A DNA stretch of 64,000 bases, from assembly GCF_022846255.1 (NCBI RefSeq), contig NZ_AP025682.1. One strand, written 5' to 3'. The notes under the pieces are model-generated. The model worked only from the letters and a program-made list of their open reading frames with translations. It ran no database searches and was not told where the DNA came from. Positions 40,273 through 55,701 of the stretch are shown here, one piece after another. The stretch comes from Escherichia coli (GTDB taxonomy: Bacteria; Pseudomonadota; Gammaproteobacteria; Enterobacterales; Enterobacteriaceae). Position 1 is the stretch's first letter, and each line of letters begins with the position of its first letter. Both the position numbers and the translations under genes were made by a program.

Positions 40273-40529
40273 TTCATTCTCCTGGCTTGTCGCCAATAAA
40301 ATTCACCTTGCGAGTTTGTTAGTATTCTAACATCTACTCCGCAACACACTTCGATGTACATCACAATTAAGGAAATCTACTTACAAGTTTGCATCACTGT
40401 AATGCGATCTGGTTCAAATAATTCACTTTCAAATGAATGCGTCAGTGGTGGCAAACGTATCAGGATCAAAGTGAACATCACGAAACTTCTTACAATGGCG
40501 CATCACCTTCGGCATAAAAGGAAAAGAAG

Positions 40530-42080
40530 ATGCCCACTTCTCATGAAAATGCACTGCAACAACGTTGCCAGCAAATTGTCACCAGCCCGGTACTTAGCCC
40601 GGAGCAGAAGCGCCATTTTCTGGCACTGGAAGCAGAAAATAATCTGCCTTACCCACAGCTGCCTGCCGAAGCCCGCCGCGCGCTGGATGAGGGGGTAATC
40701 TGCGATATGTTTGAAGGTCATGCGCCGTACAAACCGCGCTATGTCTTACCCGATTACGCCCGTTTTCTGGCGCACGGTTCCGAATGGCTGGAGCTGGAAG
40801 GCGCGAAAGACCTTGATGACGCACTCTCTCTGCTGACCATTCTTTACCACCATGTACCGTCGGTCACATCGATGCCGGTCTACCTGGGGCAACTGGATGC
40901 GTTGTTGCAACCGTATGTTAGAATTATAACACAAGACGAGATCGATATTCGAATAAAACGTTTCTGGCGTTACCTCGACAGAACCCTGCCAGACGCCTTT
41001 ATGCATGCCAATATCGGCCCGTCTGATTCGCCCATTACCCGTGCGATATTACGTGCAGACGCAGAGCTGAAGCAGGTTTCACCGAACCTGACCTTTATCT
41101 ACGATCCTGATATCACCCCTGATGACCTGCTGCTGGAAGTGGCGAAAAACATCTGTGAATGTAGCAAACCGCACATCGCCAACGGTCCGGTGCATGATAA
41201 AATTTTCACAAAGGGGGGCTACGGGATTGTGAGCTGTTACAACTCACTGCCGCTGGCGGGTGGTGGCAGCACGCTGGTACGCCTAAACCTGAAAGCCATT
41301 GCCGAGCGCAGTGAATCGCTGGAGGACTTCTTTACGCGCACTCTACCGCACTACTGCCAACAGCAGATCGCCATCATCGATGCGCGGTGTGAATTCCTCT
41401 ATCAACAATCACACTTCTTTGAGAATAGCTTCCTGGTGAAAGAAGGGCTGATTAACCCTGAACGTTTTGTGCCGATGTTTGGCATGTATGGGCTGGCGGA
41501 AGCGGTTAACTTGCTGTGTGAAAAAGAAGGGATTGCCGCACGCTACGGTAAAGAGGCCGCCGCAAATGAAGTGGGTTATCGCATTAGCGCGCAACTGGCG
41601 GAGTTTGTCGCCAATACCCCCGTGAAATATGGCTGGCAAAAACGCGCCATGTTACACGCACAGTCGGGGATAAGTTCCGATATCGGCACCACGCCGGGCG
41701 CGCGTTTGCCGTATGGTGATGAGCCAGATCCGATTACCCATCTGCAAACTGTCGCCCCGCATCATGCTTATTATTATTCCGGCATCAGCGACATTCTGAC
41801 GCTCGACGAAACCATCAAACGTAATCCGCAGGCGCTGGTACAGCTTTGCCTCGGTGCCTTTAAAGCCGGAATGCGTGAATTTACCGCCAATGTCAGCGGT
41901 AACGATCTGGTTCGCGTTACCGGTTATATGGTGCGTTTGTCGGATTTAGAAAAATATCGCGCCGAAGGTTCACGCACCAACACTACCTGGCTGGGAGAAG
42001 AAGCCGCACGCAACACTCGTATTCTGGAACGCCAGCCGCGCGTGATAAGCCATGAACAGCAGATGCGCTTTAGTCAGTAA
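40530..42080 (+). CDS. yjjI: Glycine-radical-enzyme-like protein YjjI (DUF3029), unknown substrate
   Basis: 516 aa ORF, syntenic with K-12 yjjI; followed by an overlapping radical-SAM activase gene. Confidence 0.9.
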
Positions 42081-51660: not shown

Positions 51661-52449
51661 ATGGCCTATCGTTCCGCACCGCTCTATGAAGATGTTATCT
51701 GGCGAACGCATCTCCAGCCGCAGGATGCTGGGCTTGCACAAGCCGTGCGGGCGACGATCGCCGAACATCGTGAACATTTGCTGGAGTTTATCCGCCTGGA
51801 TGAACCCGCCCCACTTAACGCCATGACGCTGGCGCAATGGTCATCAACTAATGCGCTAAGTTCTCTACTCGCAGTCTATTCCGATCATATCTACCGCAAC
51901 CAACCTTTGATGATCCGCGAAAACAAACCGCTGATCTCACTGTGGGCGCAATGGTATATCGGCCTGATGGTACCACCATTAATGCTGGCGCTGCTGACTC
52001 AGGAAAAAGCATTAGATGTGTCGCCGGAACATGTCCACGTTGAGTTTCACGAAACCGGACGCGCCGCCTGTTTCTGGGTCGATGTGTGTGAAGATAAAAA
52101 CGCAACACTACATTCGCCGCAGCAGCGAATGGAAACGTTAATCAGCCAGGCGCTGGTTCCGGTTGTGCAGGCACTAGAAGCAACGGGAGAGATTAACGGC
52201 AAACTTATCTGGAGCAATACCGGTTATTTGATCAACTGGTATCTGACTGAGATGAAACAGCTGCTCGGCGAGGCGACGGTTGAATCGCTGCGCTATGCCC
52301 TCTTTTTTGAGAAAACGCTTACTACCGGTGAAGATAATCCACTCTGGCGTACCGTGGTGCTACGCGACGGCCTGCTGGTGCGCCGCACTTGCTGCCAGCG
52401 TTATCGCTTACCGGATGTGCAGCAATGTGGCGATTGTACGCTGAAATGA
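51661..52449 (+). CDS. fhuF: Ferric-siderophore reductase FhuF (2Fe-2S)
   Basis: 262 aa ending with the cysteine cluster CCQRYRLPDVQQCGDC. Confidence 0.9.
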   Translation: MAYRSAPLYEDVIWRTHLQPQDAGLAQAVRATIAEHREHLLEFIRLDEPAPLNAMTLAQWSSTNALSSLLAVYSDHIYRNQPLMIRENKPLISLWAQWYIGLMVPPLMLALLTQEKALDVSPEHVHVEFHETGRAACFWVDVCEDKNATLHSPQQRMETLISQALVPVVQALEATGEINGKLIWSNTGYLINWYLTEMKQLLGEATVESLRYALFFEKTLTTGEDNPLWRTVVLRDGLLVRRTCCQRYRLPDVQQCGDCTLK

Positions 52450-52486: not shown

Positions 52487-53164
52487 TTAATAAGGATGCA
52501 ACACATTACTTGTTTCGCAATGCCGCATACATAACAGAATATCTGCGGCCTCCAACAACCCTGCATCAGAACTGACGCCCAGTTTCGACATCACATTAAA
52601 TTTATGTGCACGGATCGTTTTGATATTGCGTTTAAGCTGCTCGGCAATTTGTGTCATTGAGTAGCCACGCGACATAAAGCGCAATATTTCTCTCTCCGTC
52701 GGGCTTAACGTCCGGCTTTGGTTAATGTACCACTGATTGTTCAGTCGATCGGTCGCCTGACGTACACCATTTAATGACAAAAAGAGTTCCTGATGAAAAA
52801 TCTCCAGCGTTGACGCTTTACTTAATACACCGTCCAGCGGTGATGGCGATAATGAACCAATCAGCCGAGCTTCAATATCATCATCCGCAATAACTAAACG
52901 CCGGGTACGCGGAAACTTAATCGCCAGTTCAGTCAGGCAGGATAATCCCTCTCTGCGCGCACTTCTCATGGCAGAAAAAGAAAAAATGACCGCTGCAAAC
53001 GAGATCCGCGACATGGCATCCTGAAATGACTCCTGACTGGTATAGGTATGGAGCTTATAAGGGTTACCCGCAAACTTTCTGAATAAACTCTCAATACCGA
53101 TACTACTCATGACGCATTTTTCTATGAGTGCGACATTTCTCTTCTTAATTCGGCTGTGTTCCAT
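52487..53164 (-). CDS. bglJ: LuxR-family transcriptional activator BglJ
   Basis: 225 aa with C-terminal LuxR-type HTH; overlaps the yjjQ 3' end. Confidence 0.9.
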
Positions 53165-53847
53165 TCTGCGGCATCTCCATAAACAGAAGGCAAGTTAAGT
53201 TCTCTTGCACCCTGCGCGCTATTTATCCATGCATACATTTCAGCGTTGCTGTGAATTGCCAGTCGACGCATCGCACTGTTTTTTTGGGCGCTGATAGTTT
53301 TATTACTTTTCTTAAGCAATGAAGCTATCTGGTTGATGCCCCATCCTTTACCTAATAGCCGCAGTACCTTGCGCTCTGAAAGAGTGAGAATGACGGAGCG
53401 ATAGCTAAAATCATGAGTTTCAGTCATTGCCGGAGAGGTCAGCATGGCGCTGATACGCTCTGAGTGCGTATTGCCGGAACGTACGGTCTTGACCAGATTC
53501 TCAATGGGTTCAACATCAGACAATAACGTCGCCGTAGGGCACATGAGCAATTCTACTGCCTGGGAATACCAGGAGCGTGACACCATGAAAACCCAGTGAA
53601 TTTCCCGATATTGTGAGATTAAAGAGTAATAATGCTCACAAACGGAACGTGGATCTTCACTTTCACCGGCCAAATCAGCAATGACTAATCCGGAACGACG
53701 TAATTGTAATAAGGTAAGGTCCTCCGCAGAGGCGCTGGATATTATTTCATATTCAGGGAAGTGAGTCCTCATGACCTCTTTTAACCCTGCTTGCATAACA
53801 GGTATTTTACTGATAACAATTCCATTTTTGCAGCATCCTGGCAACAT
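53122..53847 (-). CDS. yjjQ: LuxR-family transcriptional regulator YjjQ
   Basis: 241 aa with C-terminal LuxR-type HTH ([34 protein letters not shown]). Confidence 0.9.
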
Positions 53848-54466
53848 ATTTCCTCCACATCCACTGTCTAAAAATCATGATGGTTTATTCAAGGTATTCA
53901 TTCCTTAAATATTTCCAGCAAATTAATAGATTAAGCGAATAAATTATCCTTAGCATTCACTTTCATATCAGCATACTCCTGCTGCACAACAACTCCACTG
54001 CATGTGTCAGAAGGTTAGCATCAAATGATAACCTGGTGAAATAGCCTGGAGACATTTAAAATATCTACATTAAGTTGTTAGAAATACTTAATGAAAAACA
54101 GAAATCTCATTCATTTAATTTATAATTAAATGATATCTCTTCCCGCAGAGTGCGGGAATCACACAATCAATATTTATTCAATAAAATCTGATGGTTTTAA
54201 CTTGTTAACATTAAAAAACGCGCCCAGCTATCTATTATCCTGACTCGTAAAGGCCAAATAACAAATTCATTATAGTGATAATATTCATGCGATAGTTTGT
54301 TTACGGCGAGAGATAATTCGCTTTTTATCACCGAGCATCTCCCGATAACCAGGATTAATCAGCGCAATTTTGATCTTAACCTACCGCAAAACAACCGTGC
54401 TTCATGATACAAATGGATTCTCATTATCTGAACAATACGCAGCACGTCTATGACAAAGGGCGAGTT

Positions 54467-55701
<1,235 letters not shown>

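Follow-up and report, generated by a model that had tools for sequence, protein, structure and literature searches.

A shared AT-rich regulatory spacer between the divergent yjjQ-bglJ and yjjPB genes of Escherichia coli, probably controlled by H-NS and LeuO

The gap between the outward-reading genes yjjQ and yjjP of E. coli is, at a probability that we put at roughly 90%, the shared H-NS/LeuO-controlled control region of the divergent yjjQ-bglJ and yjjPB units. It lies in a stretch of 64,000 nucleotides (hereafter the window) that is 100% identical to positions 406311-470310 of the E. coli AR_0013 chromosome (NZ_CP032204.1), from which the RefSeq annotation was taken. The spacer is bounded by the yjjQ start codon on the left and by the RefSeq yjjP start at 54467 on the right. 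Its anatomy within the window is as follows:

53848..54466, no strand: yjjQ/yjjP divergent intergenic regulatory region, 619 bp, GC 34.6%
53122..53847, minus strand: yjjQ (LuxR-type regulator), first gene of the yjjQ-bglJ operon, from RefSeq; GC 45%, below the window mean
52487-53164, minus strand: bglJ (LuxR-type regulator), overlapping the yjjQ 3' end; GC-poor (45%)
54467..55701, plus strand: yjjP-yjjB, ThrE-family putative succinate exporter pair, the right-hand genes controlled; from the RefSeq annotation
53990..54350, no strand: AT-rich centre with fast sequence turnover, the putative zone of H-NS nucleation and spreading; GC 33.5%

The original prediction of an AT-rich divergent intergenic region of about 620 bp, flanked by yjjQ-bglJ and yjjPB, agrees with RefSeq in the identities of yjjQ, bglJ, yjjP and yjjB and in the outward direction of yjjQ (minus strand) and yjjP (plus strand). 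The yjjP and yjjB genes have a GC content that is average for the window and overlap by 10 nt, which, together with their annotation as an exporter pair, fits a single operon. Their description as a putative succinate exporter is credited to Fukui et al. 2017 where that work is cited in PMC12332998. In K-12 MG1655 the genes are arranged identically around a gap of 618 bp (NC_000913 4602859-4603476) that carries no annotated feature, and none was annotated under the spacer in 20 sampled E. coli records. Over its 619 bp the spacer differs from that of K-12 at 25 positions (96% identity). Of 5426 complete E. coli genomes, 5423 contain it, and most of these copies are 95-99% identical.

Both parts of the description 'unusually long, very AT-rich' were borne out when length and AT content were compared across the window. 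The spacer is the longest of 58 intergenic regions (median 89.5 bp), and its GC content of 34.6% compares with 51.2% for the window as a whole. Only 0.6% of 619-bp windows are equally AT-rich, and these are located either in the spacer or in an ompK-like gene at 305-1066. Within the spacer, the core has a GC content of 30-33%, and the lowest value over 300 bp (30.3%) begins at 53919. TpA steps occur at twice the frequency of the window. The density of A-tracts is 4.5 per 100 bp, compared with 1.9 for the window, and their number (28) is close to the composition-matched expectation of 25.5 +/- 4.3. H-NS has a high-affinity nucleation consensus, TCGATAAATT, and matches resembling it with at most two mismatches numbered 2 in the spacer versus 2.0 +/- 1.4 in composition-matched simulations. 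Such high-affinity motifs are not obligatory for H-NS binding. The 10-11 bp periodicity of AA/TT is marginal, with 6% of shuffles reaching the power seen at the 11-bp period. Since H-NS motifs, A-tracts and AA/TT periodicity all stay near what composition predicts, AT-richness is the one property by which the spacer stands out in sequence.

One other stretch of the window is as AT-rich as the spacer, namely 1-1299 (GC 0.32). It holds the ompK-like outer-membrane gene (305-1066) beside a sulfatase gene, is followed by a 611-bp gap of normal GC content before mokC, and looks like a strain-variable insertion.

The conservation pattern was obtained from 80 loci encoding close YjjP relatives, with one genome per species. 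The divergent pair of yjjQ-bglJ and yjjPB is conserved across Enterobacteriaceae and, where the two units are adjacent (about 75 species), the spacer measures 347-709 bp and has a GC content of 0.30-0.44, compared with 0.48-0.56 for the locus. Between genera, sequence conservation is limited to the gene-proximal parts of the spacer, and no similarity to the core (about 53870 to 54350) was detected beyond Escherichia in any of the roughly 75 species. Among Escherichia species the core is 75-78% identical while the flanking proteins are 91-97% identical, and invariance is lowest (28%) at 54128-54167 and 54288-54327. Maintenance of length and AT-richness without maintenance of sequence is what would be expected if a physical property, such as the ability to bind H-NS, is under selection.

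The elements that stand out at either edge and in the centre of the spacer are these:

53852..53856, minus strand: GGAGG, the Shine-Dalgarno sequence of yjjQ, 4 nt upstream of the ATG; without variation in 16 species from at least 7 genera
53943..53971, minus strand: predicted sigma-70 promoter for yjjQ from a consensus scan, with -35 CTGATA (53971-53966), a 17-nt spacer and -10 GATAAT (53948-53943)
54050..54075, minus strand: upstream AT-rich block, reading ACTTAATGTAGATATTTTAAATGTCT on the minus strand; 88% invariant among Escherichia species
54140..54158, no strand: perfect 8-bp palindrome TTCCCGCA-GAG-TGCGGGAA, about -12 kcal/mol, strain-polymorphic
54370..54375, plus strand: TTGATC, invariant in 18 species of at least 8 genera and containing the only GATC (Dam site) of the spacer
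54399..54413, plus strand: conserved block gCTTCrTGwTAmAA, extended -10-like for yjjP, with TG at 54405-54406 and TACAAA at 54408-54413; contains ATG 54404
54456..54469, plus strand: yjjP ribosome-binding site (AAGGGCGAG, purine-rich) and the true start codon, ATG 54467

Divergent promoters are indicated by the outward orientation of the flanking genes and by conserved blocks on either side, AAGGATAA and GGAGG for yjjQ and TTGATC...TGnTAnAA for yjjP. On the yjjQ side, alignment showed that Escherichia, Citrobacter and Salmonella share the -10 block AAGGATAA. The exact promoter hexamers, like the extent of the H-NS-bound zone, are predictions; for yjjQ, the RpoD table of a SELEX study gives the same CTGATA-17-GATAAT hexamers as our consensus scan (PMC3946193). 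The block at 54050-54075 lies about 110 bp upstream of the -10 block, is partly kept in Citrobacter and Salmonella, and may be a site for H-NS or LeuO or an upstream promoter element.

On the yjjP side, the gCTTCrTGwTAmAA block is a putative promoter element for yjjP. TTGATC is found at a near-constant distance of 32 nt upstream of the conserved TGnTAnAA -10-like element, which is too far for it to be the -35 of that element, and it therefore looks like a regulator site; we regard it as a candidate of this kind. The same block bears on the start codon of yjjP. ATG 54404 would yield a protein of 277 aa, but was rejected as a start: it sits inside the conserved promoter-like block and reads AGG in Klebsiella, and the extension from 54404 to 54467 has indels whose lengths are not divisible by 3 and is frameshifted in Escherichia sp. 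E1V33. In contrast, MQTEQQ from YjjP residue 1 is conserved in the 80 loci. As ATG 54404 is not conserved as part of a coding extension, the start of the 256-aa YjjP is right and 619 bp is the correct measure of the spacer. The intergenic region is reportedly given as 555 bp in the abstract of the 2008 study of Stratmann, Madhusudan and Schnetz; the older yjjP start at ATG 54404 accounts for the discrepancy with the present 618-619 bp, as it results in a gap of 556 bp here and 555 bp in K-12.

In the centre, the palindrome at 54140-54158 distinguishes the present strain from K-12, in which the same locus, with the same flanking genes and orientation, is free of the cluster of changes that creates it; K-12 has TGC-AAAA at the palindrome arm, and other Escherichia species have no hairpin. 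A 65-nt megablast query centred on the palindrome matched 2074 of 5426 E. coli genomes, and the perfect arm was present in the three of three matches that were read. We considered the hairpin as a terminator or protein-binding site and rejected it, on the grounds that it is GC-rich, has no T-run, is absent from K-12 and other Escherichia, and falls in the least conserved 40-bp bin. The palindrome is probably not functional, and the clustered AA-to-GGG change that completes it looks like the outcome of quasi-palindrome (template-switch) correction.

In K-12, yjjQ-bglJ is known as an operon repressed by H-NS and activated by LeuO (Stratmann, Madhusudan & Schnetz 2008, as summarised in PMC5025477, PMC3950696 and PMC4264507). 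Repression by H-NS is dominant and keeps yjjQ-bglJ off in the laboratory, conditions under which LeuO-driven activation of the native operon is too weak to matter (PMC5025477). The yjjP<>yjjQ spacer is flagged for H-NS in a genomic SELEX table and binds RNA polymerase holoenzyme (PMC3946193). The proposal of an H-NS-silenced region controlling genes on both sides thus matches the published H-NS/LeuO regulation of a K-12 orthologue with 96% identity, to which the sequence itself adds AT-richness. H-NS repression, antagonism by LeuO and the effects of IS elements on expression are drawn from the K-12 literature, and by analogy would apply to the present strain. The 2008 study (J Bacteriol 190:926, PMID 18055596) reportedly states in its title that the divergent yjjP is regulated likewise by H-NS and LeuO. 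Its abstract is said to place H-NS binding in the middle of the AT-rich stretch, away from both promoters, and LeuO sites in the centre and over the yjjP promoter.

We postulate the following arrangement. Each promoter would be situated near its own gene at the edge of the spacer, firing leftward for yjjQ-bglJ and rightward for yjjPB, and the AT-rich centre of about 350 bp would be coated by H-NS, leaving both promoters nearly silent in laboratory conditions. LeuO would bind inside the spacer, including over the yjjP promoter, and could restructure the H-NS complex such that yjjQ-bglJ is derepressed. Where a promoter is cut off from the AT-rich centre, for instance by an IS insertion, expression would be expected to rise.

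Insertions of this kind have been recorded. When E. coli evolved in mouse intestines, IS1, IS2 and IS5 entered the spacer repeatedly, with such events in 57% of the populations from wild-type mice (PMC4674774), and one IS clone showed yjjP expression that was 2-fold higher under aerobic conditions (PMC5094792). When transferred to the window, the gut-selected insertion points at -111, -185 and -256 from the yjjP start correspond to approximately 54356, 54282 and 54211, and so fall in the interval that separates the AT-rich centre from the conserved block next to yjjP. Such a placement is what relief of silencing would predict. A natural counterpart of these gut-evolution events is E. coli strain 203740 from human stool (NZ_CP025913.1; locus L085, 5030-6045), where an IS1B element has taken the place of almost the entire spacer, of which 45 bp remain next to yjjP, and has removed the 5' two-thirds of yjjQ. 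Extra match places numbered 19 among the 5423 E. coli genomes with the spacer, which is an upper bound for naturally IS-split spacers.

Three other explanations for the length and composition of the spacer were weighed. In one, an unannotated small protein or sRNA gene fills it. The original prediction had named such a gene, if conserved, as the finding that would speak against it, and had stated that the spacer contains no ORF over 60 aa. The latter statement holds, as no ORF above 45 aa lies wholly inside the spacer and the two of at least 60 aa merely touch its right edge:

ATG 54404, plus strand: N-terminally extended yjjP frame, 277 aa
54448-54645: antisense ORF inside yjjP

We aligned six Escherichia sequences (the present strain, K-12 and four other Escherichia species), across which each of nine ORF candidates of at least 20 aa is disrupted by a stop, the loss of its start or a frameshift in one sequence or more. 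The best of them is a 30-aa ORF on the minus strand (54055..53963), whose ATG is kept in all six sequences and whose frame is kept in five. However, it is frameshifted in Escherichia sp. E1V33, has no Shine-Dalgarno sequence ahead of it, and shows a pN/pS of 0.74-0.81, whereas yjjQ and yjjP, compared in the same way, give 0.10 and 0.06, respectively. For an RNA gene, the conserved block at 54008-54087 could be transcribed and a weak terminator-like hairpin is found at 54305-54322, although the hairpin is not conserved. An Rfam scan at E values up to 10 returned only two chance matches (21 bits, where the gathering scores are 54 and 65), and RNAalifold on the six sequences gave a weak fold of -45 kcal/mol over 673 columns, made up mostly of implausible long-range pairs. 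With neither K-12 nor any of the 20 E. coli genomes sampled having an ncRNA or small CDS annotated here, and a core that has no similarity beyond the genus, a hidden gene is a highly unlikely explanation; the small-ORF and sRNA checks that had been suggested found no conserved small protein or sRNA in the spacer.

The spacer could instead be the decayed remnant of genes that once stood between yjjQ and yjjP, for which pobR (AraC-type regulator) and pobA (4-hydroxybenzoate 3-monooxygenase) are the candidates. This pair occupies the yjjQ/yjjP gap in 22 of the loci examined, including those of Klebsiella, Raoultella, Kluyvera, Intestinirhabdus, Citrobacter amalonaticus and C. sedlakii, with two examples given here:

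Locus L056, 1641-3723: pobR-pobA of Klebsiella pneumoniae
Locus L010, 1638-3752: pobR-pobA of Citrobacter amalonaticus

It is flanked there by two AT-rich half-spacers of about 220-310 bp and 280-295 bp, the sum of which is close to the Escherichia spacer of about 620 bp. These sizes fit clean insertion into, or excision from, the middle of a spacer that was long beforehand, without any coding sequence staying behind, and tblastn of PobR and PobA against the E. coli spacer returned chance matches (best E 0.58) that were no better than those of the YjjQ and YjjP negative controls. Moreover, long AT-rich spacers are also found in genera that lack pobRA, which is absent, without leaving a remnant, in Escherichia, Salmonella, Enterobacter and the C. 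freundii group. We consider decay of pobRA very unlikely. Alternatively, the spacer might be neutral filler or a mobile-element remnant, AT-rich through mutational bias and flanked by two ordinary promoters, with no further regulatory role. The fast turnover of the core relative to the flanking proteins would suit such a view, as would motif and A-tract counts that composition accounts for. Against it, about 75 species have kept the spacer long and AT-rich in spite of this turnover. The core has no relatives in a phage collection, and its matches in a plasmid collection are limited to large, chromosomal-looking E. coli records of 0.37-4.9 Mb. Regulation of the region by H-NS and LeuO is moreover published, and IS insertions in it are repeatedly selected and alter expression, all of which makes neutral filler extremely improbable.

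A further idea goes beyond shared H-NS/LeuO control. TTGATC and TGnTAnAA may bind a conserved regulator of yjjPB or act as a Dam-methylation-sensitive switch and, separately, the AT-rich centre may be a recurrent landing pad for IS elements and pobRA; we hold this to be improbable, if worth stating. Were the landing-pad reading true, the length and composition of the spacer would be selected as an evolvable module for silencing and activation, beyond the role of a passive spacer.

The closest parallel for H-NS/LeuO control of the spacer is the regulatory region of the bgl operon. Both have AT-rich silenced promoters at which LeuO antagonises H-NS, and in both cases IS1, IS2 or IS5 upstream of the promoter raises expression (PMC9678765, PMC2753651). 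The bgl operon is activated by IS insertion, by LeuO and by BglJ-RcsB. The two differ in layout, as bgl has upstream and downstream H-NS sites that loop around a single promoter, whereas the spacer would have a central H-NS zone between divergent promoters, and they differ in the published IS effect, which is modest at the spacer (2-fold for yjjP). The leuO promoter is part of the same circuit, being repressed by H-NS/StpA and activated by BglJ-RcsB; leuO and yjjQ-bglJ activate each other, and both are held by H-NS (PMC5025477). It lies elsewhere in the genome and is unrelated to the spacer in sequence. This feedback was found not to operate in laboratory conditions (PMC5025477).

As the regulation of the locus is already published and of a textbook type, the observation is real but ordinary. 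Together with RcsB, BglJ activates leuO, bgl and other loci. The spacer gates BglJ, the repressor YjjQ and a succinate exporter, and is of modest importance. Our analysis adds that length and AT-richness are kept without conservation of sequence, places the conserved promoter-proximal blocks, supports the yjjP start at 54467, and documents pobRA in mid-spacer in some genera and a hairpin polymorphism in the centre. This comparative detail refines the annotation and leaves the overall picture unchanged.

Elsewhere in the window, two genes are RefSeq pseudogenes in this strain: yjjI (glycine radical enzyme, 40528-42080) is annotated as frameshifted, and lgoD (L-galactonate oxidoreductase, 60316-61338) has an internal stop. 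The fhuF gene (51661-52449) is 94.0% identical to K-12, compared with about 99% for bglJ, yjjQ, dnaT and dnaC, and its divergence suggests a local recombination patch or relaxed constraint.
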